A model generated the notes under the pieces. The model was not told where the DNA came from, searched no databases, and was given only the letters and a program-made list of their open reading frames with translations. The translations under genes and the position numbers were made by a program. A stretch of 63,041 nt of DNA, the filler included, from Craspedostauros australis (taxonomy: Eukaryota), in NCBI GenBank assembly GCA_030167865.1. It is 22 parts of 22 records of this genome, joined end to end, with 100 filler letters (N's around TTAATTAATTAA, not from the genome) between each part and the next. Parts side by side here need not be neighbours in the genome. Positions count along the whole stretch, not along the records: positions 28,005 to 34,489 come from JALAGF010000666.1; 21 more parts are not named here. One strand, 5' to 3'. Below, piece after piece: positions 4,331 through 54,901 of the stretch. Numbering within the stretch: position 1 is the first letter of the stretch; each line of letters opens with the position of its first letter.

Positions 4331-5302
4331 GGTGGGAGTGCCGGTCACGGTGTTTACAGTAGTAATGGGTATTTCACGCAAGATTGATGTCTGTGCTTGT
4401 GGCTTGAAGTGATTCTGTGAGCACACTGCGCTGATCTGGGGTGGGCTGGAGGAAGATGGGCTGAAGGAAATTGAGCTCACAGCGTCTCACGGCATCTTTG
4501 TTTGATGTCGAGTTTGTGGAAGAAACAGGAACTGCCGTTGCTGTTGAGAATTCGTTGTGTGGGTGCAGGTGGACACTGGAGTGGCCCATGTAGCGCCATG
4601 GCTCAGACTTCAAGCTTGTTCTGATCGAAATCACGGTCGACACAACACGCAACAGGGACAGCCGCGCTCCCCCTTGTTGTGCTTTGTCATGATGCTGAGA
4701 GCCGCTTGACTTGTCTTTTGGCTTCAGGTATTATAGTTTGCTCACAATGGCGCGGTGTCCCCTTGGGTATGCGAGCGAACTGGAGAGGTAAAGCAGACAG
4801 AGAGCAGCTGGTTGTTGACATATCCTCAATGAGATGGCCTACGTGGTGGGTACAGGGAGAACGTGGCTCTGTGTGTCCTGACACATGAACCCCCAAGCAT
4901 CGAGATGCATGTGCGCAGCACAAAGCACGGGAGCGAACGAGAACACCGCCGCGATTGTTGGGTTCCTTCTTCGTTTCTCGTCCCCCCTTTCTCCGCCCCC
5001 TGTTCATCTGCGAATGTTTGTCGCGCTTCTTTCATCGAACGTCATCTTCCTCGGTCTCTTGATTTCGAGATGTAAGTTTAGGGATCAGCCACGAACGATA
5101 ACGTTGTACATACAATGATACACTATAATGCGGTGCAATTGCGTTGATGGAAATGCAAGCTATTATATTATAGATCCGTGATGTATAGTAAGATAGTTGG
5201 ATNNNNNNNNNNNNNNNNNNNNNNNNNNNNNNNNNNNNNNNNNNNNTTAATTAATTAANNNNNNNNNNNNNNNNNNNNNNNNNNNNNNNNNNNNNNNNNN
5301 NN

Positions 5303-13366: not shown

Positions 13367-13466
13367 NNNNNNNNNNNNNNNNNNNNNNNNNNNNNNNNNN
13401 NNNNNNNNNNTTAATTAATTAANNNNNNNNNNNNNNNNNNNNNNNNNNNNNNNNNNNNNNNNNNNN

Positions 13467-13651
13467 TGTTTGCGTTGGGGTCTGTTTTTTTGCCATCTGG
13501 ACCCCTCCTGAGAGGCCGGAGAAGTGCTTTTAAAAGCACCTGGTGCTTTTAAAAGCACTTCGGGGGGTCAGAGAGGGCCAAAAGTGCTTTCAAAAGCACC
13601 TCCACTAAGAACACCGTGAAACAAAACTCACCATGGATATCAAAATTTAAA
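13467..13651 (-). repeat. Palindrome-cluster repeat module, copy 1 (GTGCTTT-NN-AAAGCAC x3)
   Basis: 16-bp palindromes at 13524-13539, 13543-13558 and 13584-13599. Flanking arms match 32908-33114 in reverse complement. Confidence 0.85.
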
Positions 13652-28152: not shown

Positions 28153-31100
28153 ATGGGCGACGACGCGCCGACGGCTGAAGATGATCAAAATACACTTATC
28201 GATCTCGACTCAATCTTCAACAAAAAGGAGTTCTGGGCCGACATGTCGAACTTGGATAAGGACAAGGAAGCACAAAACCATCTGGAGGAGTGCGCCACCA
28301 AGGCCCTGAGGAAGGTTGGCGTCGTCGCCCCCGATGAGACCCGCATCAAGACGACGAGCCGACAGATTCGTTCGAAATGGGACAACTGCCGCAAACACGT
28401 TTGCGTGCAGGTGCGCAAAGGCCTTACCGCTGCACAACTGTGCGGCAATGTTGAGGAATACGCCATTGATCAGAGCTCCACCTCGGTGTCAACGTGGCTC
28501 CTGACCTTCCTTCGTGGCAAGAATGCAATCCCCCAGTGCATCCTCGACGCTATCCAGGAACCCAACGACGATGATCATCTTATCGTTGACGGTAACCCAC
28601 ACCAGTCAGTTCTCAACCTGTTGAAGGAGATCCGCGGTGAAGACCCCAAGGGCTTTCGTGGTCTGAAGTACACCTCGGACATCATCCACCAAAATGAAAC
28701 TGAATTCGCACACTTCATCGGCAACCCCAACTTTCGACATGCAGGAAAGACCGACTTGATCCCCAAACAAGTCTTCATCCAAGCGCCCACACCAACAGGC
28801 ACCCACCAGGACGAGCGGGTCCATGTGTACCACGAAGAGAGCGGTAGTGGCAAGACCGTGCAGCTTGCGGCGAGCGCATACACCAGAGGCGCTCTGTTCA
28901 CTATCATGCTCAACACCGACGATGTGAAACTTCTCCCTTCATCGAATGCTGATGAAGTAGACAAGGACGACCGAATGAACAAGTCCTGGACGAAGCTCAC
29001 AGATGAAGTCGGATCGATCCTCACGCGAGACAAAAATAGTCTCGACAGGCTTGTCGACTTCCTGGAAAAGTTGGATAAGGTGGTGGAAGAGAAGACCACA
29101 CTGTTCATCGTCGTTGGGATTGACGAAGCAAGCAAGTCCCCAAACTTCGTCCGGGCCATCATCCAGAGCCACAGTGACTTTGGAACGGATCTGGGGAAGT
29201 TCATCCAGCGCAAATGCACTGAGGAGGTCGCAAAGCAAGCCAATTCCGCTCCAGCAGGAGAAACACAAGACTCTTCGAATGCGAATGGACAGGACCTTTG
29301 TGTTCTCAATCACATTGACATCAAAGTCCTATTCTCTGTGGCAGGCACCGGTGCCGGCCAAACACCGGCGGGATCAATCCCCAAGAACTTCACTCACCTC
29401 CATATTTCTGCAAAGCTGAATCCCGCAGACGTCTACCACATTCTTCGCAGCGAATACGTGAAAGACGTGAAAGACGGCACGAATACCATCATACCAGAGT
29501 ACACAGAGGTTAAGAAGTTCCCTCTCCTCAAGGCCATCGTTGATTCCAACGCCCGGATGATCTCGATCTACATGCGAGTGTCAAACAATCGACAAAAGTC
29601 CAACCAAAGAACCGGAAAGAAGTCAAGTGAGAATGAATACGAGCAGAATGCCATCCTTTCCGAAACCTTCACCGCCTTCATGAAAAGCAATGGCTTGATT
29701 ACTCTGGTGCATAATCCTTACCTTGCGCGGCTCACAGCATCCCAGGCTTTGGCGGTTCTTCTTTTCCAACAGAATAAACCTTTCCGCAACCCGCTCACCA
29801 ATGATCAACTGAACAACATGGACTACGGGATCACCTTCCAGCGCTTCAAGGACGACGTCGACGCCGACGCCGACACCGACGCCAGCGATGCCATCATGCG
29901 TCGGTTGGTCGTCACGTATGGCTTAGTCACCGCAAGGCCACTCAAAGGTAAAGGGAACTGCACTCCCCAGGCAAAGCCATTCGCGCTCAGCGATGCCATG
30001 CAGCTCCTTTGCCTTTGGCTCATCCAAGGCGGTGAAGCAGTTGCGGCTGAGAAATCGTTTCTCGGAACAACCTCGACCAGCTTTGAAACCCTCACTGCGC
30101 TGCTGGCCGGGGCCGCCATCGCTGCGTCCTCCGTCGTCAAGAAAGATGGCGATGGGCGCGTCATTGCTGCTCCCGCCAATGGTCCCAATCCTAACACGGT
30201 TGGGCAGCAGAAAGCAGACATCTTTGCTGCTCTGGGCAAGGTCGGCATGAGCATCACACCACACCTGACAAACAATAGGTTTTCCCACTACACATGCGAA
30301 ACGACCGACGGAGACAAATGTGTGGAAAAAAACGCCGGCCATCAGTTTTCGGCTCTCAAGAATACCCACCCGGCCTTACTTCCAGACAATCTCGAAATTC
30401 CTCGGGTGTACTTCCACAAGTCAATGATGACTTCCGTCGAGAGCGGCGTGGACAAGCGGCGCATCCGGGCTGCTACTCGTACAAAATTCGAGGATGCTAT
30501 CTCCACTGCTCATATGGAAGCCGCGTACCGTGTCAGCACTGTTTCTGAACAACTCCATCAAGTCATCAACGGTACTCCTAGTGACCAACGCACGATAGCC
30601 ATCGGCGATGCTGCACAACTCATGGAAGACATCAAGACTACTACTGCACACGCCTTGGCCTGCATCACGGGTACTGCGGCACAAGACCAGGCAAACACCA
30701 ACGCTGTTGCTCTACCGGGCCTGGTAGCCACCAACGCTGTTGCTGTACTAGGCCTGGCAGCCGCCAACGCTGCTACTGCTGCTGCTGCACTAGGCCTGGC
30801 AGCCACCAACGCTGCTACTGCTGCTGCTGCTGCTGCACTAGACCGGGCAGCCAAGAACGCTGCTGCTGCTGCTGCTGCGCAAGGCCGGGCAGCCAAGAAC
30901 GCTGCTGCGCAAGGCCGGGTAGCCAAGAACGCTGCTGTGCAAGGCCAGGCAGCTGCTCTTGCGCAAGGCCTGGCAGCCGTCATGGCTGCTGCTGCGCAAG
31001 GCCTGGCAGCCACCAAAGCTGCTGCTGCGCAAGGCCTGGCAACCAAGAGCGTTGCTGCTGCACTAGGCCAGGCAGTCACCAACGCTGCTGCTGCTGCACT

Positions 31101-32352
31101 AGGCCAGGCAGTCACCGACGCTGCTGCACTAGGCCAGGCAGTCACCGACGCTGCTGAAGCACAAGGCCTGGCAGTCACCAACGCTACTGCTGCACTAGGC
31201 CAGGCAGCCACCAACGCTGCTGCTGCAAAAAGCCTGGCAGCCACCAACGCTAATGATGCTATGGTTTTACTAGATCAGGCAGCCCAGGGCGCTGCTGTTG
31301 AAGCTGCTGATGATGCACTAGTTCAGGCAGCCAAGGCCGCTGCTGCTGCTGATGCACAAGACCTGAGTGCCAAGGCCGCTGCTGCTGCTGATGCTGCACA
31401 AGACCTGAGAGCCAGGAACGCTTCTGCAGCAGAACACCTGAAAGCCGCCAAAGCTGCTACCGCAGACGCTGCGGGTGCTATTTTCCGCGGCATGGATGTA
31501 GAGCACATGCAGGCAAAAGGAATCTCGGCGTCTTCTCCGCTGATGAACATGACTGAACACGAAATCACAGCGTGGTTGGAGGACCATCATTCAATTTTCA
31601 TCGATCGCGACCTACTCCGCCAACTCAAGGTGCTCTGGGACGCCGTGGGACAATCCAACAGCGGGCAACACAACGGTCAGCAAGACAGCGGTCAGCAAGA
31701 CAACTATCAGGAAGACGCGAACCCGGCCGCCGCCCCCGCTCCCGCCAACGCATCTCACAGCACAACCACAGTGAAATATTTCTTCAACCTGCCACTCATC
31801 CACGTTGCAGAAGGTAGCAGTGAGTTCGCAGATGCCTACGTCACCTTCCTTACGGAGAAGATGGACACCACCACAGGTAAGAAGATCTACGGTTTGCGAA
31901 CAATCTGCATCCAAGCCAAAGATTACGCCAAGGATACAAGCCCAAAAATGGAAACTTACAAGAAAAATGCCTCCGCAGTGGCGAACCCCGCACTGGACCC
32001 TCTCTTTGGCGACGACCGGATCTACACTGCTGCAGGTACGCGAAACGCAGTTGCTTGGAACTGCAGGGAAGAATTTCCATACGTTCCTTTCGTGGTGGAT
32101 GATTCCAAAATCCTGGAGAATCAGATGGAAGCGATGAGTAAGCGCCGCTCCAAGACTGCAAAACATGGCGCGCATGCTGTGCTCTGCATCGGACCATCAA
32201 AAATTGCGCCATCATCCACACAAGGCGCAAACAAAAGGCCCGACGCACAACCCGTTCTCCCCGGAGAAACCAAGAAAAGAAGCATTGAACGTGGGCAAGA
32301 TGCTTCAAGCGACAGCCAACCTGCAGCAAAAAAGCAAAGACAAAGCGCCTGA
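28153..32352 (+). CDS. P-loop NTPase + Ala-rich repeat insert + PD-(D/E)XK-like nuclease (Crinkler/RHS-like), family member 2, complete 1399 aa
   Basis: Uninterrupted ORF. Walker A EESGSGKT (~28834-28857) and Walker B IVVGIDEA (~29107-29130), then FSVAGTG and SNARMISI. Nuclease-like FADAYVTF (~31825)...ICIQAKDY (~31903). Basic NLS-like tail (KKRS...KKQR). Confidence 0.85.
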   Translation: MGDDAPTAEDDQNTLIDLDSIFNKKEFWADMSNLDKDKEAQNHLEECATKALRKVGVVAPDETRIKTTSRQIRSKWDNCRKHVCVQVRKGLTAAQLCGNVEEYAIDQSSTSVSTWLLTFLRGKNAIPQCILDAIQEPNDDDHLIVDGNPHQSVLNLLKEIRGEDPKGFRGLKYTSDIIHQNETEFAHFIGNPNFRHAGKTDLIPKQVFIQAPTPTGTHQDERVHVYHEESGSGKTVQLAASAYTRGALFTIMLNTDDVKLLPSSNADEVDKDDRMNKSWTKLTDEVGSILTRDKNSLDRLVDFLEKLDKVVEEKTTLFIVVGIDEASKSPNFVRAIIQSHSDFGTDLGKFIQRKCTEEVAKQANSAPAGETQDSSNANGQDLCVLNHIDIKVLFSVAGTGAGQTPAGSIPKNFTHLHISAKLNPADVYHILRSEYVKDVKDGTNTIIPEYTEVKKFPLLKAIVDSNARMISIYMRVSNNRQKSNQRTGKKSSENEYEQNAILSETFTAFMKSNGLITLVHNPYLARLTASQALAVLLFQQNKPFRNPLTNDQLNNMDYGITFQRFKDDVDADADTDASDAIMRRLVVTYGLVTARPLKGKGNCTPQAKPFALSDAMQLLCLWLIQGGEAVAAEKSFLGTTSTSFETLTALLAGAAIAASSVVKKDGDGRVIAAPANGPNPNTVGQQKADIFAALGKVGMSITPHLTNNRFSHYTCETTDGDKCVEKNAGHQFSALKNTHPALLPDNLEIPRVYFHKSMMTSVESGVDKRRIRAATRTKFEDAISTAHMEAAYRVSTVSEQLHQVINGTPSDQRTIAIGDAAQLMEDIKTTTAHALACITGTAAQDQANTNAVALPGLVATNAVAVLGLAAANAATAAAALGLAATNAATAAAAAALDRAAKNAAAAAAAQGRAAKNAAAQGRVAKNAAVQGQAAALAQGLAAVMAAAAQGLAATKAAAAQGLATKSVAAALGQAVTNAAAAALGQAVTDAAALGQAVTDAAEAQGLAVTNATAALGQAATNAAAAKSLAATNANDAMVLLDQAAQGAAVEAADDALVQAAKAAAAADAQDLSAKAAAAADAAQDLRARNASAAEHLKAAKAATADAAGAIFRGMDVEHMQAKGISASSPLMNMTEHEITAWLEDHHSIFIDRDLLRQLKVLWDAVGQSNSGQHNGQQDSGQQDNYQEDANPAAAPAPANASHSTTTVKYFFNLPLIHVAEGSSEFADAYVTFLTEKMDTTTGKKIYGLRTICIQAKDYAKDTSPKMETYKKNASAVANPALDPLFGDDRIYTAAGTRNAVAWNCREEFPYVPFVVDDSKILENQMEAMSKRRSKTAKHGAHAVLCIGPSKIAPSSTQGANKRPDAQPVLPGETKKRSIERGQDASSDSQPAAKKQRQSA
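30690..31480 (+). repeat. In-frame coding minisatellite, ~30-42-bp units (GGCCWGGCAGYCACCAAC-(GCT)n-GCACTA/GCGCAA)
   Basis: About 20 degenerate units encoding G(L/Q/R)A(A/V)(T/K)NAAA...(L/Q); the reading frame stays open throughout. Confidence 0.9.
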
Positions 32353-32907
32353 CGGCAGCGATGAATCGCAACAACGTCGGGGCAACTGTGGGCATTGTGC
32401 CATGAATCAACAACCAGGCAGCCGGACCAAGATGGCAAATGTCGCATGCCTCGCGAAGGCCTCGTTCATCACCGACACCAACCAAAGGAGCACACCGAAA
32501 AGGGGTTCGGTGTTTCCAACCTATGCATACATGCATTCATCCATCCATACATGCATCCTTCAGAACATCTGGTGGTTCTGATGAGTTGCGCAACGACACT
32601 TTTGCCAGTACCAATGCATGGCCCTTCGGAAGAAAGTCTGCGTTGCAGTCTTACCGAGAGTACACGTAAAGTTAATCACTAGTACCAAATACACTAATAC
32701 ATGCAACACTACAAGACAAGTGCAGCCGCGAATGCTGCGCCGGCATGATCTTCACAGCGACTAATAGGAGCCCCCGAGTGAGTCGACCTGTACTCCGTTA
32801 TTGGCCTCCAGAAATTTTCTCTCCTACATACTAACTAACCACATATTTGTAATCCTTGTAGGTCTAATACAAATAATTAACCATTACAATTTTTAATTAG
32901 ATCCTAT

Positions 32908-33114
32908 TTTAAGTTTTATGGACCGATGGATATCCATGGTGAGTTTTTTCCTTCCTTTGAAGGAAGCTTTCCTAGTGCACCTTCCTTCAAAGGAAGATCG
33001 GGGGGGTCAGAGGGCCCCAATTCTTCCTTCGAAGGAAGCCTTCCTTTGAAGGAAGAATTTTGGCCTCTCAGGAGGGGTCAAAATCCCCAAAAAAAACAGA
33101 CCCCAACGCAAACA
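32908..33114 (+). repeat. Palindrome-cluster repeat module, copy 2 (CTTCCTT-NN-AAGGAAG x4)
   Basis: Palindromes at 32951-32966, 32981-32996, 33023-33038 and 33040-33055. Arms GATATCCATGGTGAGTTTT and GGCCTCTCAGGAGGGGTC...AAAAAAACAGACCCCAACGCAAACA are shared with 13467-13641. Confidence 0.85.
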
Positions 33115-34029
33115 TGACACCCCACTGCGTCAAAATAACACGGTTTTTGCTCTACGCGATACATACGGACGTTGCAACCGCAAATTTACTTCTGGTTGCT
33201 GTGCTTTACAGACTAGTACCAAAATTGAAGCACCTGTACTCTTCATGTGCACCTCCTCCATCTAATCCAATGTATCTCCTTCGACTCAAGCAAATCCATG
33301 CATCTAATATGAATGAGGAGGATGGAAAATGGTAACAGTAATCCATATATTTCTGCTATATTACTTTAGTACAGTTGCCGTCATGGTTGCTTTGCTACGT
33401 CTACATGCAAGTTGACGTTCAGACTGACAGATGAGAGAGGACGTCCCTCCTCCACGTGTAGATGAGATGGTTCCGATTCCTCTCCTCTGGTTGCGCTCGG
33501 CGTCCATCTCGGTCGTGTTTTGATCGTTTTCCAGCTGCATGAGACGTCTTCCACATGTTACATTCAATTTCAAACAAATTTCATCGAGGCGTTGAAAAAA
33601 CTGCGAAATCACTCCGTTATGTAATAAGAGTCGTTTTGGTGTCTGCAACGACAGTTCGCGGTATCCAGATTCTGGGTTGGACAGTTGTGTCCGGTTTCTG
33701 CGCCAATGAAAGTCATCGGTTTTGAGTGGCCCAGAACAAGGAACTTGGCTTTGTTTCGGCATGGGCTTGCGTCATTGTTCATGTCCATTGCACATCAAGG
33801 CACCAGGATGGGCAGAAGACGAAAAGCCGACAGCACAGCGACAACGACAACAACGACGACAGCCACGACGAAAGTGAAAATGAAAGTGACAATGCAAGTG
33901 ACAATGCAAGTGACCACAACAGCAAAGACAATGACAACATCAACATCAACAGCACAAAACCAATCTGAAAAGCCCAGCCCCTCATCATCACATCCACATC
34001 GATGCGAGAAGCCAACCCCAAAGAGTGAC

Positions 34030-34737: not shown

Positions 34738-36556
34738 ATGGGCGACGACGCGCCGACGGCTGAAGATGATCAAAATACACTTATCGATCTCGACTCAATC
34801 TTCAACAAAAAGGAGTTCTGGGCCGACATGTCGAACTTGGATAAGGACAAGGAAGCACAAAACCATCTGGAGGAGTGCGCCACCAAGGCCCTGAGGAAGG
34901 TTGGCGTCGTCGCCCCCGATGAGACCCGCATCAAGACGACGAGCCGACAGATTCGTTCGAAATGGGACAACTGCCGCAAACACGTTTGCGTGCAGGTGCG
35001 CAAAGGCCTTACCGCTGCACAACTGTGCGGCAATGTTGAGGAATACGCCATTGATCAGAGCTCCACCTCGGTGTCAACGTGGCTCCTGACCTTCCTTCGT
35101 GGCAAGAATGCAATCCCCCAGTGCATCCTCGACGCTATCCAGGAACCCAACGACGATGATCATCTTATCGTTGACGGTAACCCACACCAGTCAGTTCTCA
35201 ACCTGTTGAAGGAGATCCGCGGTGAAGACCCCAAGGGCTTTCGTGGTCTGAAGTACACCTCGGACATCATCCACCAAAATGAAACTGAATTCGCACACTT
35301 CATCGGCAACCCCAACTTTCGACATGCAGGAAAGACCGACTTGATCCCCAAACAAGTCTTCATCCAAGCGCCCACACCAACAGGCACCCACCAGGACGAG
35401 CGGGTCCATGTGTACCACGAAGAGAGTGGTAGTGGCAAGACCGTGCAGCTTGCGGCGAGCGCATACACCAGAGGCGCTCTGTTCACTATCATGCTCAACA
35501 CCGCCGATGTGAAACTTCTCCCTTCATCGAATGCTGATGATGAAGTAGACAAGGAAGACCGAATGGACAAATCCTGGGCGAAGCTCACAAAGGAAGTCAG
35601 ATCGATCCTCACGCGAGACAAAAATAGTCTCGACAGGCTTGTCGACTTCCTGAAAGTGTTGGATGGGAAGATGCAAGAGAAGGCCACACTGTTCATCGTC
35701 GTTGGGATTGACGAAGCAAGCAAGTCCCCAAACTTCGTCCGGGCCATCATCCAGAGCCACAGAGACTTTGGAATGGTGCTGGGGAAGTTCATCCAGTACA
35801 AATGTATTGAAGAGTTGACGGAGAAAGACATCCTCCCTCTATCAGGAGCACCACAAGGCTCTTCGAATGCAAGCAAACCGAGCCTGTTTTTTCATGAGTC
35901 CATCAACAAGCTGACAGACCTGGAACGAAGCGGACACCTCTGTCCTCTCCAGCACATTGACATCCAAGTCCTATTCTCTGTGGCAGGCACTGGTGCCGCC
36001 CAACCACCGACGGGATCAATCCCCAAGAGCTTCACTCACCTCAATACTTCTGCAAAGGCGAACCCTGCAGACGTCTACCACATTCTTCGCAGCGAATACA
36101 CGCAAGGCGGCAAGCCTACCATCATACCAGAGTACACAGAGGTTAAGAAGTTCCCTCTTCTCAAGGCCATCGTTGATTCCAACGCCCGGATGATCTCGAT
36201 CTACATGCGAGTGTCAAACGAGCGACAAGCGTCCAACCAAGGAACCGGAAAGAAGTCAAGTGAGAATGAATACGAGCAGAATGCCATCCTTTCCGAAACC
36301 TTCAAAGTCTTCATGGAAAGCAATGGCATGAAAACTCTGGTGCACAACCCGTACCTTGCGCGGCTCACAGCATCCCAGGCTTTGGCGGTTCTTCTTTTCC
36401 AACAGAATGAATCTTTCAGCAAATCGCTCACCAACGATCAACTGAACAACATGGACTACGGGATCACCTTCCAACGCTTCAAGGGTGACGCGGGCGATGC
36501 CATCATGCATCGGTTGGTCGTCACGTATGGCTTAGTCACTGCAAGGCCACTCAGAG
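34738..36556 (+). CDS. P-loop NTPase (Crinkler/RHS-like) family member 3, 3'-truncated
   Basis: Appears identical to member 2 from the contig start to 35426, then diverges. Walker A and B are retained. Confidence 0.85.
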
Positions 36557-36656
36557 NNNNNNNNNNNNNNNNNNNNNNNNNNNNNNNNNNNNNNNNNNNN
36601 TTAATTAATTAANNNNNNNNNNNNNNNNNNNNNNNNNNNNNNNNNNNNNNNNNNNN

Positions 36657-43595: not shown

Positions 43596-43802
43596 CCTCT
43601 TTCAGCAGTCCAGAGAGGTCTAATCACAGGCTTGTGACTGCATGTCTGTTCCGATGTGTTGCCTTGTTTGGCACCAATTTTCGGAGACTCGTTGTGGTGA
43701 CTTTCGTTTGGTTTCTTTGTCGATGAGAGACGGCTGAAGGTGAGACTGGTCGTTATCGGGGTGAGATACACAGCAAATCAAATATCCGTAAGGAATTTTT
43801 CG

Positions 43803-43919
43803 GGACTGAGGAGTCCACTTAGCCGTAAGTGGACTCCTCAGTCCACATACCATTTTTGTTGTTTCGTAAGTGGACTCCTCAGTCCAGTTACCGTAAGTGG
43901 ACTGAGGAGTCCACTTACG
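43803..43919. repeat. Cluster of four GTGGACT-(GAGG/CCTC)-AGTCCAC quasi-palindromes upstream of a transposase-like gene
   Basis: Sites at ~43803, 43829, 43870 and 43892. The last has 12-bp arms (CGTAAGTGGACT GAGG AGTCCACTTACG). Sites 1 and 2 form a 19-bp stem with a GCCG loop. Confidence 0.9.
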
Positions 43920-44233
43920 ACCACAAAAAAAGTAGTCGAATTTCGCTGTTCTGAGAAAAGACTACTTCGACCACTTCACCTCCTCCAAATTCCCAGTTCC
44001 TCTTGATTGCGTTCTGACTGTGATGCTGGCGTCGTGTTTTGTCGTGTTGATTTACGTGTTGCCAACCGCATCCTTGGACTTCAATGGACTTGCAGATGAC
44101 AACACAGGAACTTTGGATGCGACAACAAGCTTTCCATCGTCCGCTTCAGCGACATCACCGTTGTTCATTGTCACACGCTCCTCCAATACAATACTGTTTA
44201 GTTGTCCACCAGCATCAAGGAGCTTGCTTCATC

Positions 44234-45432
44234 ATGAGTACTTTGCCTGCCATCACAGCTCTCATCGAGCACATGGCAGATACCACCAACCACAGTGATT
44301 ATGACACTGACAGCTCATGCGAAGACCGGGTCGTCGATACCCCAAGCGATCTTGACAGTGACGATGACGACGACGTCCTTGGTGTCCACAACAAAAGCAA
44401 TGTTGACACCAACAATGTTGATACTGGAGTCTACCGCATTGGCAATGCTCATGTGGTCAATGGTGCATCAGCAGCCACTCTGATCTCTGCCATCGTCCCT
44501 GCCACCAACGCCATTGTCCCCAACAACACTCACACCAACACATCCACAACCGGCACAACTGCAACCAGCACAACTGCAACCAGCACATCCAAAACTGTTG
44601 AACAACCAGCTCTGACAGAAGCAGAACGAGTTGCTTCTATGGGCCTGCAATGGAAGCTGCTGGATCCCAACACTGCAGAGTTTTGCGTCTCTGTGGGGAA
44701 GGCCCGGCAGCAAACCTACACTCTGCTGTGCGACGAGGTGAAACATCTTCGCTCCTCCTCATCCGATCTGTGCAACACCGCATCACCTACCCCTGCGCAT
44801 TTGGTTGATCTATTGCTAGGTTTGGCATCGCCCATATACCTTTCAGCATTTTCAGCTTCGCCGATCAAGATGTCTCCATATGAGTACTTTCAATTCCTCC
44901 TCGCATTTGCATGCCAGGTAAAACAGCGCTCCACTGTCAGAGACCTTTACGATGCAAACAACTTCGAGAACATCCCTGACTTCCCCTCTTCTGCTGTGTA
45001 CTACGAATTGTGGCGTCGAATCGAAGTGGATGGCAACTCCAAGCAGAAACGTAAGCGCTATTTTTGGAGCGAACTTCAAAAGAGTTGCAACACTCTCCTG
45101 GAGAAGATCTCATTGCGCGATGCAAAAATGAAATGCGTCATCACACTTGACGACGACAAGGTCCATTCGCATAGCAAAGGGATGACAAGTGGCCTCACCA
45201 TCAAGCGTCACACTCAGGCGAATCGACCAGGGTAAGTCACGAGCCGAAATGGGGTTGTCAACAGGTTGCATTTGTTGTATTATTTGCATTCATCCTCTCA
45301 CTGCCTTTTTTCTTGTACAACACAGTCCTGTGGCCATCGCAGGTGTCCTGACAGCTTCCTCTATGCCCTGCACCATGGCCTTCCTCAGAGAGCGGCACCA
45401 AGACAACTGTGAATCTACAATGGAAATAATCA
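44234..45432 (+). mobile_element. piggyBac/IS4-like DDD transposase, N-terminal half, with one intron
   Basis: Acidic disordered N-terminus. FWSELQKSCN...CVITLDDDK...HTQANRPG matches the position of the first catalytic-Asp strand. Phase-2 intron 45232-45325 (GTAAGT...CACAG) continues as GPVAIAGVLT. Family call is from recall. Confidence 0.55.
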
Positions 45433-45748: not shown

Positions 45749-48229
45749 ATGGATCGCAAACAGCAAGCGAAGAAGACCACAAAGCAGGTCCGCATCGTAA
45801 TCGACAAAGCTGTTGACGATATGGAAGTCGAAGCAACAACCAACGAAGCACAAGCCCAACAGACAAAGCCACCGCCAGAGCCAGATCCGAAAGCAAACGA
45901 AGCAGCAGAGCTGGAGAAACAAGGATGGATAGCCACTGCATGGCAAACTCCCAACGCTTCTCGTTGGAAAAAACTTCCGTTGAGTGTCATCACGCAAGCC
46001 AAAGGGTACACATCAGAGGAGGTCTTTGGGGAAACGGGACGGTCGCTCCACGACAAGGCGAAGCAAGTGCTAACCCTGAAAGCCCTGTGGGAAGGCAACG
46101 ACACCTCGTTTGTCTCGGCAATGGTCCCCTCCGTCAAAGAGATCACCGAGTTTTTCCAAGCTGTGATGGACAGCAGAATCACAAAACTTGGGAAGGCAAA
46201 AATCTCTCCGGATGACCCCAAACGAACAGGAGTCAAACAGATGATAGCAGACCTGTCTCTCACAGACCCTCGCAAATGCTTTGGCCCGTCGCCACAAGGG
46301 GAGCACCAGAAGACGATGGCGAATCAGATGACGATCATGTGGGCAGCAGCAGTCAACTACATGGGCAGCCAATATCCTGAAGAATTGAGCCCACCGGAGG
46401 TTGATTCAGCAGCGGAGCCCATGGAGGAAGATAGCAACGACAGCAGCCACGACCTTGAGGCGCTTATCACTAAGCGACCCCTGCGTCAATCGAATCTCAC
46501 GGCTTTCACGACCACAGTCAAGGAGGGAAAATCCAAGCGACCCAAAACTGTCAAAGCCCCTGCAGCGGCAGCACTTCCAAATCCTAATCAGACCTCTGAT
46601 CAACCTGACGCACCTGGGGAATCTGAAGATGACGCCGCCAAAAAGCAAGGGTGGACGACAGTGGAGGCCAGGGAGACGCAGATCGGCAACATCAAGCGAC
46701 GACACTACGAAAGATTTGAAATGCGCTTGAAGATCCCGAAAGGGTCTCGCACGCCAGTCCGGGATTTTCAGGCAAGATTCGCACAATGGTGGGAGGAGGC
46801 CAAAGACATGGACAAGAGCCTCGTCATACGCCCATGGTACAAGAAGAACAAGAAGAAAGGATGCATCTCGACAACGGAAGGAGTCCCAACCCAATGGAAG
46901 GACCTCAGAGTCTACGTGGGAAAGGCAAATCCAAGCTCAAGGAGCGAGGATGTGTACATGCAGATTCTGCTGGCATCCAATGTCGACATGCAAGTCTTTA
47001 CCAGCAGGAGCAACGAGATGGAAGGATCCTACACAGAAGGAGAATATGCCTACATCCAAGACCTAAGGGATGCGGAGCACATCACCGAAATCGGATTCAT
47101 GGCGTACTCAGGAAACTTCACGAAGGCGAAGCAAACTCTCGAAATCATCAACCAACTACTGGAGGAAAGCAGAGCAAAGATCAAGGTGGGAGGAAGAGTC
47201 AAATTCATCGGAAAAGTACAGGAGGATGTCCAAGACGAGCATAGAGCCAATGGAGGAAGCTGGTACAACGCGCCTTGGATGGCGCTACACATCCACGCCG
47301 ATGTCAAAGACGCTCGACGGGCATCCAAAATGCTTGGTCAAATCTTCAACAAAAGAGACGCGCATCGTGGGGGGCTGAACTACCGCTACGTCCCCAAACC
47401 GGGAACATCCGTCATGGGAGCCAAGACCGCCACCAAGGTGAAGGCCATGATCAAGAAACACCAGCGCTACGTACGACAGCTCAAGTACGAACAGCTCAAG
47501 GGAGACTTCTCGCTCGATGAAAAAGATCCGGAGACCAAGCAAATCACTCTGCGACAATTTCTGGCAAAGCAAACCAAAGAGGGGTGCCCTCTCATCCACG
47601 ATGTGAGCACGACGCACATGGCAGATGGCAAGGAAGACGCCATACACATCGTCGCATTTGGTGAACGATTCCCGGAAGCAGTCGGGATCATACACACCAT
47701 TGCCGTCCGCTGTGCCACGGAGATCAACGAGTCAACCAACGCGTGGTTCTCAGACGACATCGTCGAGATGAGCTGTCTCATGCAGAAAGATGACAGTGGA
47801 GACTACGTTGATGCCGAAATGGAGCTGGAGATGGATTTCCTGCTTGATGAAGGCTTCGGCGAAGTGCAAATCGACGGCATGGGAATGATGGACGACGACC
47901 AAGAGCCCTCGCCAAGGAGAAAGAAGCCAAGGCTAGAGGATGAGTCGGTCTACACGTTCACCACTGAACTTGGCAAATCAGCAGCATCGTCACGATACAC
48001 CCAACCAGACTCACAGACAGAGGCAGAGGAAATCGAAAATGAACTGGAGGCAGTCATGAGAGAAGCAAGGAAAGACCAAGAGGCGGAACGCAATCGTAAG
48101 AGAGTGCAAGAACAATCAAACGAGATCGCCAACAAAGATTCCATCATCGCAGCGCTGCGCGCCCAGCTACAGGCGTCCGGCTCGGCTCCCCCCGACTCAA
48201 GCAAAGAAGGGGGCGCAACCAATGAATAA
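45749..48229 (+). CDS. ORF1 of the non-LTR element (826 aa from the first ATG)
   Basis: Long ORF preceding pol with a C-terminal coiled-coil-like segment. Overlaps ORF2 by 8 nt (ATGAATAA). Confidence 0.9.
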   Translation: MDRKQQAKKTTKQVRIVIDKAVDDMEVEATTNEAQAQQTKPPPEPDPKANEAAELEKQGWIATAWQTPNASRWKKLPLSVITQAKGYTSEEVFGETGRSLHDKAKQVLTLKALWEGNDTSFVSAMVPSVKEITEFFQAVMDSRITKLGKAKISPDDPKRTGVKQMIADLSLTDPRKCFGPSPQGEHQKTMANQMTIMWAAAVNYMGSQYPEELSPPEVDSAAEPMEEDSNDSSHDLEALITKRPLRQSNLTAFTTTVKEGKSKRPKTVKAPAAAALPNPNQTSDQPDAPGESEDDAAKKQGWTTVEARETQIGNIKRRHYERFEMRLKIPKGSRTPVRDFQARFAQWWEEAKDMDKSLVIRPWYKKNKKKGCISTTEGVPTQWKDLRVYVGKANPSSRSEDVYMQILLASNVDMQVFTSRSNEMEGSYTEGEYAYIQDLRDAEHITEIGFMAYSGNFTKAKQTLEIINQLLEESRAKIKVGGRVKFIGKVQEDVQDEHRANGGSWYNAPWMALHIHADVKDARRASKMLGQIFNKRDAHRGGLNYRYVPKPGTSVMGAKTATKVKAMIKKHQRYVRQLKYEQLKGDFSLDEKDPETKQITLRQFLAKQTKEGCPLIHDVSTTHMADGKEDAIHIVAFGERFPEAVGIIHTIAVRCATEINESTNAWFSDDIVEMSCLMQKDDSGDYVDAEMELEMDFLLDEGFGEVQIDGMGMMDDDQEPSPRRKKPRLEDESVYTFTTELGKSAASSRYTQPDSQTEAEEIENELEAVMREARKDQEAERNRKRVQEQSNEIANKDSIIAALRAQLQASGSAPPDSSKEGGATNE

Positions 48230-51200
48230 TGCACGGCTGGGGGCAGGCGAAGCATCGTCAACCACCCCCGCAAGCCAAATGGATGCAACCCCGGAGGGGA
48301 CGCGCCAGGATGGGCAAAACCTCCAGGACAAGCATTGGGGAGACTCCACGGCGACAAAGGGCCACTCGATACTGAGAATAGCAGCCCTAAACGTGGGATG
48401 CCTCCAAAGCGAGTCCAACCATTGGAAAAACCGAGACATGTGGCAATGGATTAAGCAGATGAAGATTGACGTAACACTCCTGTCGGAAATCGGCATCAAC
48501 TGGTCGAAGATGGGAGGAACCACGTCTTGGAGCACAGCAGCGAAGCAACACGTGCACACCGAAAGACATGCCCTCTCCTACAATGAGCACGAACAATACG
48601 GGAGTCGACGACAGTGGGGAGGCACAGCATGCACGACTACGGGACTCTCATCAGGCAGGGTCATGGCGCAAGAGACAGATCCAAAGCGATTGGGCAGATG
48701 GGCCAGCCTCACCATGAGAGGGAAGAAAGGCACAACAGTGCGAATGGTCAGCGTCTATGTCCCATCGAAAGGCGGGAAAAGCGCAGGCACGGTGTACAAC
48801 CAGCAAGCATCGTGGCTGGAATCACAAGGCAACACCACACCACCAATCAAGCAACTCATACAGGACCTAGAGGAGGCTCTGCAAGAATGGAGAAGCGCAG
48901 GAGAGACAATCGTGATCGGCGGCGATATCAACATGCAGGTCGACAGGTCTCAAATGGCCGAGATGATGAAGCGCCAGGGCATGCGGGAGGCCATATTGAG
49001 CCGACACCCCAACGCTCCAGGCATATCTACCAACATCCGGGCGCAATCAGATCGGGTCATAGACGGCCTATGGGTGTCAAAGTCACTGAGCATCATAAGG
49101 GCAGGCTACAGCGCATTTGGACCGTGGGATCACCGCACCGCATGGGTGGAGGTCACATCGGAGTCCATCTTCGGCACGCAAAGCAAGCCCACACCAACAT
49201 TCAGCGGTCGCAGAGTGCAGCTCAACCGGCCCAACACGGTGTCTCGCTACCAGGAGCAGCTACGCAAGCAATACCAAGCCAAACAAATAGGGCTGAGAGT
49301 GCAACGTCTACGGCAGGCGACAGTCGCAGGCGAGCGTCTCACAGAGGAGCAAATCGCGGAGGCCGAATCAATCGATGCAGACAGGACACACATGATGCTG
49401 AATGCTGAGAAAAGAGCGCGGCGAATATTCCTGGGAAATGTCCCATTCTCTCCCGAGATAAAGCGCAAAGCAATGGAGAAGCAATTCTGGGATCTGGCGT
49501 GGAAGAAACGTCAAGGGAAAACCGTGAGCTCCAGGTGGTACAACCGGGCCAAAAAGAAGGCAAACCTGAGCATACGCACCGCGACACTATCCACGGAAGA
49601 AATACAAGAGCGGCATAAGCGAGCACACCAGCTCTGGAAGAACGCCAAACGCAACGCGGCGGAATACCGGAAAACATTTCTGGAAGAAAGGGCCGAAGAA
49701 GTAGCTCGCGCAGGAAAGACAACAGTGGCCGCGGCGCTGTCCAACATCGTCCAACGAGAGGAGGTGGTGCAAACGTTCCAGGCCATCCGCAGAGTGACAG
49801 GCAGCTACGACGCCAACGGCAAGGTGGCACTGGTCATCGCAACGAACGAGAATGGCGAGGAAGAAGTTTATGACACCGAGCAGGCCGTGATAAAGCAGTG
49901 TATGAAGGCCAACGAAGCCAAATACAGGCAGGCCTACATAACACCGCTGCAAGCACGGAGATTCGAGCAGGACGTACAACAGCACGGGGCAACACGGGCC
50001 CGCCAGCAGCACCAGCACCAGCTTGGCCTGTATGACAACATGCTGATGGATCAGCTTCTGTCCGGTCATCCCGTCCCATGGCCAGCCGAATTTCAACGCA
50101 TCACCGTGGAGAGCCACCAGGCATTGTGGTCCAAAGCCCGCGAGCGCACCACGTCGGGGCCGTCTGGACTGCACTTCGGCCTCTGGAAGGCCAATGCGAA
50201 GGATGATCAACTGGCTGAAGTGGACGCAGCAATGAGAGAGATTTCTCTCCGAACTGGGTACAACTTGCAAAGGTGGTTACGGTGTGAGGATGTAACGCTG
50301 CTCAAAGAGCCCGGAAACTACAGGGTGACACGATTCCGAACCATAAGCTTGGTGGAAGGAGATTTCAATGCAAACCTAAAATGGGTGGGCAAGATCATGA
50401 TGCAACACGCGGAGCAACACGACATGCTGCCAGAGGAGCAATACGGCAGCCGGAAACAGCGAAGTGCGGCGGAAGTCAGCCTCAACAATCGCATGATCGA
50501 TGATATCGTCCGTATTACGGGAGCCACTAGCGCCATATGCTCCAACGATGCTAAGAGTTGCTACGACAGAATGGCACACAACCCACTACGGATGAGTATG
50601 AGTCGAATCGGAGTCCCGCCATGGATCAGCCACAGCGTGACCGACGCGGTTGAAGGCATGAAACATCATGTACTCACGAGCTTTGGGCGATCGCTGCGAA
50701 CGTATCCCACCAAAGGAACCAAGCTGCAGGGGTTGCTCCAAGGACTCGGAATATCCCCCGCCGGATGGGTTGCGATGAGTTCCCCGCTCATGCAGGCCAT
50801 GCAACGGCAAGGATATGGTTTCAGGACCACTAGTCCGATCTCCAGAACCACAACACGACTGGTATGTTTTTCCTTCGTCGACGACACAGATTTGATCCAC
50901 TCAGTTCGAAACGACGCATCTGATCCAAATGCATGCATTGCAGAGGTCCAAGCAGTGGTGGACTCATGGGAGGGTATGCTCCGGGCGACCGGGGGAGCTC
51001 TCGAACCGAGGAAAAGCTACTGGTATCTAATGGCATTCAGTTGGGACGGAGAGCGATGGCGTTACAAAACAGTGGAGGAGCAGCCAGGCGAGATCAGCAT
51101 CAGACAACCAGACAGCAACGACAAATCACAACTACAACGGCTGCATGTCGACCAGGCCCGAAAGGCACTGGGGGTCATGGTTAGGCACGATGGCAACCAA

Positions 51201-53852
51201 GAGAGTAACGAGGCGTACTACGTCGGTAAAGCACAACAATGGGCAGACAAAATGCGGCGAGGGAAGCTACTGCGCATGCACGCGTGGATCGCGATGAAGG
51301 CGACCATATGGAAAACGATCGAATATCCCCTGCTGAGTTCCACCTTCTCCAAGGCGGCAGCGGAGCGCATCATGCGGCCAATACTCCAAGCTGCGCTACC
51401 CGCATCTGGCATACAGCGCAACGTCTCCAGGGCACTGGTGTTCGGGGCGCCACAAGGTTTCGGTCTTGGAGTGCCGCATCTATACAATGTGCAAACAGTT
51501 CGACACATCGAGGCCATCGTTCGGCACTGGAAGACGCCCTCGCTCACTGGGAGGCTGCTACGAACGCAGGTCGAGATCCTCACACTCCAGGTAGGAATTC
51601 CTAGAGTGATGGAGATGGATTTCGACAAATGGGGCTTGCTCGCCGAGGAGTCCTGGATGAAGTCGGTGTGGGGCGAAGCTCATGAGGCGGCAATCCAGAT
51701 ACGGTACGAGACACCCATCGTCACACCGCCACGTCAGCACGACGTTCCGGTTATGGATCTCGTGATGAAGCTGGGGCTGCCCAAGTCGACGTTACGAGCA
51801 GTGAACTTGTGCAGGCAAAAGAAACAGGTTTTTTGGCTGTCAGACATTGTAAATGCAACAGGCGATGCCCTGGTCCCCAATGTGCTCGAGCCCGAGCCAA
51901 CGCAACTCAGACAATCGGTAATGAAGTGGCCAGCGATGGGTGCTGTAAGTTCGGCGAGGTGGCGACAGTGGAGACAGGTGATCAGCCAGTGCTTCTCGGC
52001 ATCTCGAACACGTGCCATCAAGTTGGAGCGACCTCTGGGAAGTTGGAGGGAGTTCTCGTCGATGAGGCCCTTGGTCTTTCGAAATGTCCGTGAGGATCGG
52101 CTATTCCATTCTTTGCTACCCGATCAACACTTTCGCAGGATACCCAGACGCCGAAGGCAGCGACAGTATGAAACAGCTGAAGGCGCCATAAGTCCAGGCC
52201 AGGAGGTGGTCGATGGGTACCAATCCCAGGGAAGAATAATGGTCATCGACTCGGGTCCAGGACTTCCGCCAGACACTCCTCCAGTGACGCAGCTCGATAC
52301 CCTCATCAACGCAATGCCGCCGTCCAAATCATGGGCAGTGTATGTTCATGACATGGTGGGTGAAGTCGATACTGTCGCCCACTCGCTGCGATGCGGTACA
52401 CTCAAGGCGTGCAGCGACGGGTCCGTAGCAGACGGGTGTGGAGCAGCGGGTGCAGTCATTCATGCCAGCCACCAAGGAGAAGAAACCAGGCTATGGCTCG
52501 CCAACAGGACCCCAGCGACAAATGAGATCATGCAATCCCACCGGGCGGAGCTCGCTGGAATCTACGGAGTGCTCGTGCTTGTCGAAGTCATCTGCGAAGC
52601 ATGCAATGTGACGCAGGGCTCGATGACTCTGGGATGTGACAATCTCAGTGCGTTGAAGGCGATCGACGGCGAATGGCATCTGTCCCCGCGATCCACCGAC
52701 GCGGATCTGCAGAGGGCGGTTCGAAGCCTCAGCCAGGGTCTTCCAATTGCAGTCACAGGGAAGCATGTCAAAGGGCACCAGGATGACGCAGCGGAATGGA
52801 CAACTCTCGACGATTGGGCGAAGCTCAATATTGAGGCCGACAAACTGGCGGGCTCGGCTCGCGTGTCTCTTCCGGAGGCGTGCGTCTATGCCGGAGCTAT
52901 CTACGGAGAGCGGGTGTCCATCCACAGCAGGTGCAAATTGACAACGATTCGGTATGACAGCATCTTTGGACGATCCACTGCTGGTGCGGCGATCGAGGTC
53001 CTGACAGCGCGGAAAGTAGTCGACCAAGGGGAGCCAGTCCATTGGAGCGCGGTCGCAGGAGGCCTCCGGTCTCTCGATCACACCAAACGCATTCTCACTT
53101 TCAAGCTAGTGACAGGAGAGGCAGCGACAGGCCAACGCATGAAGCAGTGGGGCCTGCGCGACTCCGATAAGTGTCCCAATTGTGGGGAACCGGAGAGCAG
53201 CGCGCATTTCTGGGAATGCAAAGATCCCGTCAGAGTCCAAGCGGCCAGCCGACACGTCAAGGATATCCGGAGTTGGATGCAGCGATACCCCACCAGCCCA
53301 GGGGTCACGCAAGCCATAATCTCGGCACTTCGCAGTCAAATCAGCGGCACAGTCTTGCTGCAGCCAACGGACATGAGCGCTGGAATGAGATCTGCCACTC
53401 AGAGTCAGGCAGCAGTGGGACGCATGGCCCTTCGGAAGGGTTTCCTGTCCGCAGAATGGCACGCACTGCAGGAGGCCTTTCTGAAGCAACAGGAAACAAG
53501 AAAGACGGCCAAAAAGTGGTCCATACAATTGGTGCGGCGCATATGGAAAATAGCATGGGAACAATGGCAGGTGCGCAACGACGCATTATTCCATCAGGAC
53601 GACTCGGCCGACGCTGAAATGGAGCAAGCGCTGCGAACACGCGTAGCTTCAATCCGGCAGCGCCTCGAGGAGTCCCCGACCAGCCACCACAGAATCATCG
53701 ACACCACCCCCGGAGAGGGCGCGTCGGTACCGCAAATCGCTGTATGGCTTGAGCAAGCTGCTCGGCTGCTTGGCGAACCAGCTGCCCACGGCACGCTGAG
53801 TCGCTGGCTACGGTACAAACAGCAAGTTCAACCATCCCAACCAAACGTTTAG
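48222..53852 (+). CDS. ORF2: AP endonuclease, reverse transcriptase, RNase H and C-terminal zinc-binding motif (1876 aa)
   Basis: APE: AALNV, LSE, IGGDIN, IDGLW, WDHR. RT: RTISL, EQYGSR, NDAKSCYD, LLQGLGISP, FVDDTDL. RNase H: CSDGS, SHRAELAGI, CDN, HVKGHQD, NIEADKLA. Zn motif: CPNCGEPESSAHFWEC. Confidence 0.97.
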   Translation: MNNARLGAGEASSTTPASQMDATPEGTRQDGQNLQDKHWGDSTATKGHSILRIAALNVGCLQSESNHWKNRDMWQWIKQMKIDVTLLSEIGINWSKMGGTTSWSTAAKQHVHTERHALSYNEHEQYGSRRQWGGTACTTTGLSSGRVMAQETDPKRLGRWASLTMRGKKGTTVRMVSVYVPSKGGKSAGTVYNQQASWLESQGNTTPPIKQLIQDLEEALQEWRSAGETIVIGGDINMQVDRSQMAEMMKRQGMREAILSRHPNAPGISTNIRAQSDRVIDGLWVSKSLSIIRAGYSAFGPWDHRTAWVEVTSESIFGTQSKPTPTFSGRRVQLNRPNTVSRYQEQLRKQYQAKQIGLRVQRLRQATVAGERLTEEQIAEAESIDADRTHMMLNAEKRARRIFLGNVPFSPEIKRKAMEKQFWDLAWKKRQGKTVSSRWYNRAKKKANLSIRTATLSTEEIQERHKRAHQLWKNAKRNAAEYRKTFLEERAEEVARAGKTTVAAALSNIVQREEVVQTFQAIRRVTGSYDANGKVALVIATNENGEEEVYDTEQAVIKQCMKANEAKYRQAYITPLQARRFEQDVQQHGATRARQQHQHQLGLYDNMLMDQLLSGHPVPWPAEFQRITVESHQALWSKARERTTSGPSGLHFGLWKANAKDDQLAEVDAAMREISLRTGYNLQRWLRCEDVTLLKEPGNYRVTRFRTISLVEGDFNANLKWVGKIMMQHAEQHDMLPEEQYGSRKQRSAAEVSLNNRMIDDIVRITGATSAICSNDAKSCYDRMAHNPLRMSMSRIGVPPWISHSVTDAVEGMKHHVLTSFGRSLRTYPTKGTKLQGLLQGLGISPAGWVAMSSPLMQAMQRQGYGFRTTSPISRTTTRLVCFSFVDDTDLIHSVRNDASDPNACIAEVQAVVDSWEGMLRATGGALEPRKSYWYLMAFSWDGERWRYKTVEEQPGEISIRQPDSNDKSQLQRLHVDQARKALGVMVRHDGNQESNEAYYVGKAQQWADKMRRGKLLRMHAWIAMKATIWKTIEYPLLSSTFSKAAAERIMRPILQAALPASGIQRNVSRALVFGAPQGFGLGVPHLYNVQTVRHIEAIVRHWKTPSLTGRLLRTQVEILTLQVGIPRVMEMDFDKWGLLAEESWMKSVWGEAHEAAIQIRYETPIVTPPRQHDVPVMDLVMKLGLPKSTLRAVNLCRQKKQVFWLSDIVNATGDALVPNVLEPEPTQLRQSVMKWPAMGAVSSARWRQWRQVISQCFSASRTRAIKLERPLGSWREFSSMRPLVFRNVREDRLFHSLLPDQHFRRIPRRRRQRQYETAEGAISPGQEVVDGYQSQGRIMVIDSGPGLPPDTPPVTQLDTLINAMPPSKSWAVYVHDMVGEVDTVAHSLRCGTLKACSDGSVADGCGAAGAVIHASHQGEETRLWLANRTPATNEIMQSHRAELAGIYGVLVLVEVICEACNVTQGSMTLGCDNLSALKAIDGEWHLSPRSTDADLQRAVRSLSQGLPIAVTGKHVKGHQDDAAEWTTLDDWAKLNIEADKLAGSARVSLPEACVYAGAIYGERVSIHSRCKLTTIRYDSIFGRSTAGAAIEVLTARKVVDQGEPVHWSAVAGGLRSLDHTKRILTFKLVTGEAATGQRMKQWGLRDSDKCPNCGEPESSAHFWECKDPVRVQAASRHVKDIRSWMQRYPTSPGVTQAIISALRSQISGTVLLQPTDMSAGMRSATQSQAAVGRMALRKGFLSAEWHALQEAFLKQQETRKTAKKWSIQLVRRIWKIAWEQWQVRNDALFHQDDSADAEMEQALRTRVASIRQRLEESPTSHHRIIDTTPGEGASVPQIAVWLEQAARLLGEPAAHGTLSRWLRYKQQVQPSQPNV

Positions 53853-54128: not shown

Positions 54129-54240
54129 TTGCGTCCGGACGCAAATTGGCCCAATTTGCGTGGGGACGCAAACTGAGCGTCCAATTTGCGTGGGGACGCA
54201 AACTGAGCGTCCAATTTGCGTCCGGACGCAAGCTACGTAG
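54129..54240. repeat. Cluster of four TTGCGT-NNNN-ACGCAA palindromes (30-bp period) ending at CTACGTAG; probable DNA-transposon end
   Basis: Sites at 54129, 54156, 54186 and 54216. The outer two have a CCGG core and the inner two a GGGG core. Confidence 0.8.
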
Positions 54241-54901
54241 GCCAGTACCAGGCCAAAATCATTATGGATATCGGTGCTTCTCTATCTCCGTTACTCCAGC
54301 GATCGGGGGTATTTGCAGATGCGGATTGTGACATCACCATCTTCTTCATCATCGTTGTCGGACTCACTTCCAGGGGGAGGTCAGTTCGTGCCATCGGTGT
54401 GCTCGAATGAGACCGTCAGCTGTCACGAAGCTTCAGTTCAGCGACAGTCCGCCGGACGTGGCCCAGGGGAACACGGTAATTTGTCCACTCACGACTCCAC
54501 GAGCTCGTGATTGAGCTGAATCGAGTCGTGCTTTATGACGTAGTTCCCGTCAAGCGCTGAAGTTGCGCGCCGGGCGTGCCTGATCCCCGTTCTCGCCCGA
54601 TCCTCAATCTCGCGCTTGGTTAGTTGTGAGGTTCGCTTGTGCAAACGAGTGTCATTTTCGTGTCGTTTGGCGAACGGGCGTGATGCCGAAAACAAGTTTC
54701 AGAGTACTGCGACATGTTACATTGTGTCAATTCGGATAAATGTGTTCTTCATTTTTGGACAAGTCGCGATTTCGTGTCGCATACACATAATATGCTATCT
54801 ATTTCGATTATGTTTGAAATGTCCTACCACCAATGAAAAATAGTGTGTACAAATATACGTAGCACAAGTACCAAGTTTGGCTTTGTTTGAGTTTGTGTGT
54901 C

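Follow-up and report, generated by a model that had tools for sequence, protein, structure and literature searches.

The window analysed here, a stretch of 63,041 nucleotides of Craspedostauros australis DNA, consists of short contigs joined by N linkers, and the genome searched with it comprises 66 Mb in 6734 contigs. Its longer reading frames are a 1399-aa ORF with a long Ala-rich repeat and no Pfam match (28153–32352), a partial duplicate of which lies at 34738–36612; a single ORF with guanylate cyclase and cyclic nucleotide phosphodiesterase domains (5251–7677); and a 1876-aa LINE-like ORF with a reverse transcriptase domain (48222–53852). The subject of this analysis is a pair of related modules near 33 and 13.5 kb, which the original prediction had described as sharing three exact arms around palindromes of different sequence and a spacer in opposite orientation.

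The description of the two modules was largely reproduced. The arms of 19, 18, and 25 bp are present at both loci, each with a single exact occurrence (32929, 33062, and 33090 on the plus strand; 13623, 13500, and 13467 on the minus strand). The palindromes are CTTCCTT-NN-AAGGAAG at 33 kb (starts 32951, 32981, 33023, and 33040) and GTGCTTT-NN-AAAGCAC at 13.5 kb (starts 13524, 13543, and 13584), and the spacers (32998–33022 and 13561–13581) have opposite orientations relative to the arms. The make-up of single palindromes, a spacer, and a back-to-back pair also holds, with the number of sites corrected to four at 33 kb and three at 13.5 kb. The 25-bp arm is exact, but its end merely coincides with the end of the 13.5 kb contig at the gap 13367–13466 and does not mark the limit of homology, which extends over about 290–340 bp in the left-right alignment of family ends.

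Ends of an ATAT-targeting transposon family

Both modules lie within terminal inverted repeats of ~300 bp that bound the elements of a single DNA transposon family. All copies share a sharp boundary composed of unrelated flank, ATAT, and then CC. At 33 kb, the target site (32930–32933, plus strand), recognised from flanking-repeat copies, is followed by an inward-reading inverted repeat of ~300 bp that starts with CC and carries a TTCCT-type array (32934–33233, plus strand); end alignment and the type of interior assign it to the right end. Within this repeat lie site 1 (32951–32966), the 14-bp core of which begins at element base 19; site 2 (32981–32996, exact motif match); the spacer in its common orientation (32997–33022, plus strand), which is shared by 13 of the 15 spacer-bearing ends; and the back-to-back sites 3 and 4 (33023–33055, motif match and folding). 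The element interior, 3′ non-coding sequence with 65-bp tandem repeats, continues to the contig end (33234–34489, plus strand) and is 77–98% shared with other copies. At 13.5 kb, the element lies on the minus strand, with its ATAT at 13637–13640 defined by a paralogous flank without the element (L040). The inverted repeat (13467–13636), assigned by its head type, bears a TGCTT-type array without site 1 and is cut by the contig end. Site 2 (13584–13599) and the back-to-back sites 3 and 4 (13524–13558) are exact motif matches, and the inverted 21-nt spacer (13561–13581, minus strand) is enclosed by perfect 9-bp inverted arms (13552–13560 and 13582–13590).

The family is dispersed in the genome: BLAST gave 53 and 38 matches for the two modules, several per locus, which disposes of the alternative that only these two loci exist. 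A 13-base head pattern matched the genome 49 times versus once for the reversed control, the 49 places comprising members of this family along with a sister family and some unrelated sequences. In four contigs, the sister head is inverted at both element ends with ATAT outside. Element-free relatives of the flank of the 33 kb insertion (L025–L030) have one ATAT followed by unrelated sequence in all six cases fetched, and the single relative fetched for the 13.5 kb insertion (L040) likewise has one ATAT. Because these element-free flanks carry a single ATAT, we infer that the family duplicates an ATAT target. In 16 of the 17 family ends tabulated below, ATAT is bordered on its outer side by G or C. 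At two places, L051 (C5265) and L229 (C4912), a common ATAT joins the end of one family to that of another, suggesting insertion beside pre-existing ends.

Beyond the shared head, one of two interiors follows. The left interior extends over 6 kb to the first exon of a transposase gene (C6234), the final gap being bridged by L180 and L181. The right interior is the region 3′ of the same gene, after its Cys-rich domain (C6164, C5419, and the chain C1448-C1447-C4159 with 100% overlap). The 33 kb module represents a right end. Five of the six heads that lack site 1 and have a known interior are left ends, and the 13.5 kb head, which lacks site 1, is therefore probably a left end. The extension of copies that had been proposed as a way to find a linked transposase thus led to a DDD gene, and the family is of the cut-and-paste type, with an ATAT target, CC termini, and this gene between left-type and right-type ends. 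No single contig of the assembly carries an intact copy with both ends and the gene. A MITE was considered and rejected, since the family ends are continuous with interiors of several kilobases that contain a transposase gene.

The linked transposase and its relatives

The first exon of the family transposase has 57 matches in the genome. The motifs DDDK, DRG[YF], and WNxxKGGSD and a C-terminal Cys-rich domain are common to the family, its sister families, and distant homologues of ~1200 aa, and profile-profile comparison with the latter gave a probability of 100%. In all three groups, the domain follows the pattern CxxC-x7-8-CxxC-x4-C plus a later C and H. The likeness to piggyBac, judged from sequence profiles, is remote: the canonical piggyBacs of the genome match weakly (26%, E 7e-4), the first two acidic motifs being in register, and the third acidic motif resembles the canonical GGVD by eye. 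PF13843 had no match in the linked transposase, and Pfam scans of the lineage gave no transposase match above cut-off; canonical piggyBacs account for 102 PF13843 matches in the genome, in at least two divergent groups, and the linked transposase is not among them. For the insert between the second and third acidic motifs, the best PDB profile hit with full-length homologues as the query was lambda exonuclease (E 0.11), and a PDB profile search with exon 3 alone gave no hit; a lambda-exonuclease-like nature of the insert is a lead only. Longer homologues were not found with exon 2 residues 1–300 as the query. Structure models of two separate exons were of low confidence (pLDDT 44 and 39), and a fold search of the first returned no match. 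A protein atlas search gave a single cluster, with SAP in 20% of members. The insert was noted in L166, L126, P0008, and their relatives, and some homologues add an SAP motif between the second and third acidic motifs. No transposase relative was confirmed in metagenome contigs. Among ten clusters looked up, two had homologues named from Seminavis robusta, which, like the guanylate cyclase-phosphodiesterase ORF, points to a diatom. The lineage, with its ATAT target and exonuclease-like insert, may be poorly annotated in diatoms.

Repbase includes piggyBacX and piggyBacA, piggyBac-related groups with ATAT duplications, one of which has CC..GG termini. As T. ni piggyBac and piggyBat are described in PMC5861402 and PMC11707139, the present family resembles them in its CC termini, specific 4-bp target, DDD transposase, and C-terminal Cys-rich domain. 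Unlike piggyBac, it targets ATAT instead of TTAA, and neither the boundary nor the empty sites show TTAA; its half-sites are 4 bp apart instead of 7, with three to four sites in ~300-bp repeats; and its transposase of ~1200 aa or more has introns and the lambda-exonuclease-like insert. DDE/D transposons with a lambda-exonuclease-like nuclease (PD-D/ExK, YqaJ) have been described as KolobokE and ISL2EU in the texts of PMC9587614 and PMC4122938; the present family is distinguished from these by CC..GG termini, an ATAT target, and the position of the insert between the second and third acidic motifs. Kolobok, with TTAA duplication and RR..YY termini, was rejected on the same grounds of target and termini.

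The window also contains ends of two sister families. One is a left end with an ATAT-CC head and four GGACT-N4-AGTCC sites (43782–43925, plus strand; head and site match), and the first transposase exon of this GGACT family, with the DDDK motif, was found by the exon 1 search at 44084–45235 (plus strand, contig C670). The other end has an ATAT-CC head and four TGCGT-N4-ACGCA sites (54129–54271, minus strand; head and site match); its head has 75 matches in the genome, several as facing pairs 0.65–1 kb apart, and three ends of this family (the window, L145, and L229) were tabulated.

Variation of the palindrome array

Palindrome type and spacer orientation were tabulated genome-wide, as the original prediction had proposed, for 17 family ends whose head is complete and whose flanks are distinct, 15 of them bearing the spacer; truncated, degenerate, or possibly allelic ends were left out (L003, L004, L014, L051, L111, L121, C6286, C2686, C6700, and C1330). 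A site-counting pattern built from the types already seen found 53 sites, and in 30 of these the 7-bp arms match perfectly. The 17 ends show at least four array types (CTTCCTT, CTGCCTT, GTGC(C/T)TT, and the imperfect CTTCCGA), along with partial and hybrid arrays, and the number of sites per end ranges from two to four, site 1 being frequently absent. The two types in the window, CTTCCTT and GTGCTTT, are three positions apart per half-site and are connected by single steps in the series CTTCCTT, CTGCCTT, GTGCCTT, and GTGCTTT. Two ends (L016 and L017) have GTGCCTT at site 1 and GTGCTTT at the remaining sites, and unequal halves, CTGCTTT/CTGCCTT, are found in L009, L013, and L015. In all five ends of the CTTCCGA type, site 3 alters three adjacent bases, giving a perfect palindrome. 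The half-site distance was 0.65 within copies versus 1.76 between copies (0 of 5000 permutations, over copies that are related and not independent), and the concerted patterns partly reflect shared ancestry.

These results modify the claim that all sites of a copy were swapped in concert. The changes are indeed symmetric and common to a whole copy, but stepwise, half-converted, and position-specific intermediates exist. Several arrays are best read as products of recombination: L002 and L005, which have mixed TTCCT/TGCCT arrays at two distinct insertion sites, would combine two types; L015, L017, and L020 would have lost DNA between sites; and in L008 and L011 a left and a right end would have exchanged heads.

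The inverted spacer is present in two of the 15 spacer-bearing ends, namely the 13.5 kb end (L023) and L032, both of the GTGC type and with identical inverted spacers. A diverged third instance occurs in the degenerate mini-element C6286, which has one end of each spacer orientation. The inversion does not depend on palindrome type, since L016 has its spacer in the normal orientation next to GTGC sites. It is limited to one subfamily and end type, and perhaps goes back to one event that was then inherited. A sister family shows another flip, in this case of a 10-nt spacer (L158 versus L160). An inversion between perfect 9-bp arms looks like the pattern expected of template switching.

Outside the family, 14-bp cores of the 5-4-5 form occur at similar offsets in every family examined. 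The half-sites are TGCGT, TGTCT, GGACT, and GTCCT in the sisters, as against TTCCT, TGCCT, and TGCTT here. The core offsets from ATAT (~20, 40, 49, 80–90, and 100–116) recur in sisters with different flanking sequence, and two more pairs of ends (L241 versus L239, and L145 versus L229) share arms while all of their sites differ. In metagenome contigs, five of 115 head matches had a 5-4-5 core at offset 40–41, with ~0.1 expected per offset; among the five (L253, L259, L271, L281, and L310), two represent one family, and L259 is possibly an artefact, its flanks being mirrored. These five metagenome elements, from the set L243–L322, combine this head with long symmetric palindromes that differ in sequence but share the offset.

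Candidate binding sites and their reshaping

By analogy with piggyBac and piggyBat, the palindromes are most likely transposase binding sites. In both systems, Cys-rich domains bind end palindromes in pairs (PMC5861402, PMC11707139). In T. ni piggyBac, the TGCGT motifs contacted by this domain are inverted and lie at bases 17–21 and 29–33 (PMC5861402), and the palindrome of piggyBat, as given in PMC11707139, is unrelated in sequence and used in the same mode. The palindromes of the present family similarly begin near end bases 17–19, as reported for those two elements (PMC5861402, PMC11707139), and several sister families carry the TGCGT half-site described for T. ni piggyBac (PMC5861402).

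We consider, with a probability of roughly 0.78, that the modules are transposon ends whose candidate transposase sites are held in a fixed geometry and reshaped by template switching and recombination. Each 14-bp core, a 5-bp half-site followed by a 4-bp gap and the inverted half-site, would be bound by a pair of Cys-rich domains. As every site is palindromic, all sites would be mutually direct and inverted repeats. Polymerase template switching could copy a new base from a half-site to its partner or to a neighbouring site and occasionally flip the DNA between two arms, and recombination between sites, between the two ends, or between copies could spread, delete, or mix sites. New variants would thus creep from half-site to half-site, and subfamilies would reach uniform but differing arrays. 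The need for transposase binding probably fixes geometry and position, and the half-site sequence would drift within the tolerance of the domain. Homogenisation of arms with multi-base changes and inversion of spacers by template switching at short inverted repeats have been described in yeast coding DNA (PMC8604942); in contrast to that case, as presented there, the present one concerns candidate protein-binding sites arrayed at the end of a transposon. The templated mechanism or recombination put forward in the original prediction therefore survives in part: the flip, the palindrome-perfecting multi-base changes, the deletions, and the hybrids support templated homogenisation with recombination between copies, as far as sequence comparison can indicate, but wholesale regeneration of the array was not borne out.

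The frame of this reading is largely known, namely a piggyBac-like transposon with subterminal palindromes that template switching and recombination reshape. In piggyBac-like elements of structural group SG4 (Bouallegue et al., PMC5381638), palindromic internal repeats act as both direct and inverted repeats, and the account given there reports no between-family consensus, knows ATAT as a rare site of single sequences only, and proposes rapid coevolution of repeats and transposase, which it calls not yet demonstrated. Unlike that account, as available in PMC5381638, the present family has a within-family series of palindromes and a spacer inversion. Our search of the freely accessible main texts on piggyBacA/X, on ATAT with piggyBac, and on concerted binding-site evolution returned no such family or series, although supplement S2 of PMC5381638 may list related ends. 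Within the literature searched, the graded within-family array series alongside domain variants appears to be new.

Lock-and-key coevolution, which the original prediction had also put forward, is a plausible addition, though less likely than not. Each array type would be matched to its own variant of the Cys-rich domain, and subfamilies would diverge, so that relatives and non-autonomous copies neither mobilise them nor are mobilised by them. Each main array type does occur at both left and right ends, and there are five Cys-rich variants, 69–90% identical, on catalytic segments that are 88–100% identical; but the linker preceding the domain is similarly diverged (69–89%), and every pair of domains has a pN/pS below 1. 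The comparison of L169 with L144 (domain 65/82, tail 67/68) points to patch exchange. The variable residues include those directly after the first CxxC, which may be compared with the piggyBac loop 557–571 that touches the major groove in the description of PMC5861402. Two links between domain and array could be traced (C6164 and C1448-C1447-C4159); these share KKRS..NLQVTTY around the first CxxC, but both are of the TTCC type, and none was obtained for GTGC. The hybrid arrays L002 and L005, and the occurrence of TGCGT in sisters with different domains (C246 and C3043/C6236), likewise weigh against a strict match.

The joint evolution of a transposase and its several binding sites has long been a question; in piggyBac-like elements it has been proposed but, by the account in PMC5381638, is undemonstrated. 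The graded arrays, the sisters of the same geometry, and the Cys-rich variants on a near-constant core make cognate versus non-cognate binding directly testable. It is conceivable, though in our view rather unlikely, that sites which rapidly rewrite themselves through template switching, together with exchangeable Cys-rich patches that keep up with them, repeatedly split the family into orthogonal transposase-end pairs with a shared catalytic core. Such pairs, if real, would provide a naturally occurring set of piggyBac-like systems insulated from one another and would show site-domain coevolution directly.

Strong folding could instead mean that the palindromes are non-functional by-products of hairpin mutation, or secondary structures only. 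Both module segments fold far more stably than their shuffled versions (z −6.4 and −5.7; 0 of 200 in either case), and the variation from two to four sites per end, with site 1 often missing, agrees with such an origin. The Rfam search of 32500–33600 gave no structured RNA match at gathering score. The recurrence of the 5-4-5 geometry and offsets in sisters with other flanks, and in the five metagenome matches, makes this origin improbable.

The symmetry of the sites might also suggest that a programmed site-specific recombinase or invertase, for example a Crypton-like tyrosine recombinase, rewrites or flips the array, and ATGG precedes ATAT at some ends, near the TATGG termini of CryptonS (PMC3212892). 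We regard this as very improbable, because the linked gene has DDD motifs and no tyrosine recombinase, the inverted spacer is limited to one subfamily and end type, and the long inverted repeats found here are absent from Cryptons as characterised in PMC3212892. CryptonS itself, with a tyrosine recombinase, short direct repeats, and no terminal inverted repeats, was rejected on the basis of the long inverted repeats and the DDD motifs. Programmed regeneration of the array is further disfavoured by the half-converted intermediates and by an inversion that is independent of palindrome type and perhaps inherited from one event. Finally, assembly artefacts of collapsed repeats are scarcely credible as the source of the differences, even in a fragmented assembly with gaps within many copies, as each array type is found at several insertion sites with unrelated flanks and the inverted spacer is identical at L023 and L032, with a diverged third in C6286.

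Short derivatives of the elements are also present (C6286 and L050). L050 (C1330) is a mini-element of ~150 bp in which a sister family's left end is fused to its right end inside the palindrome array.
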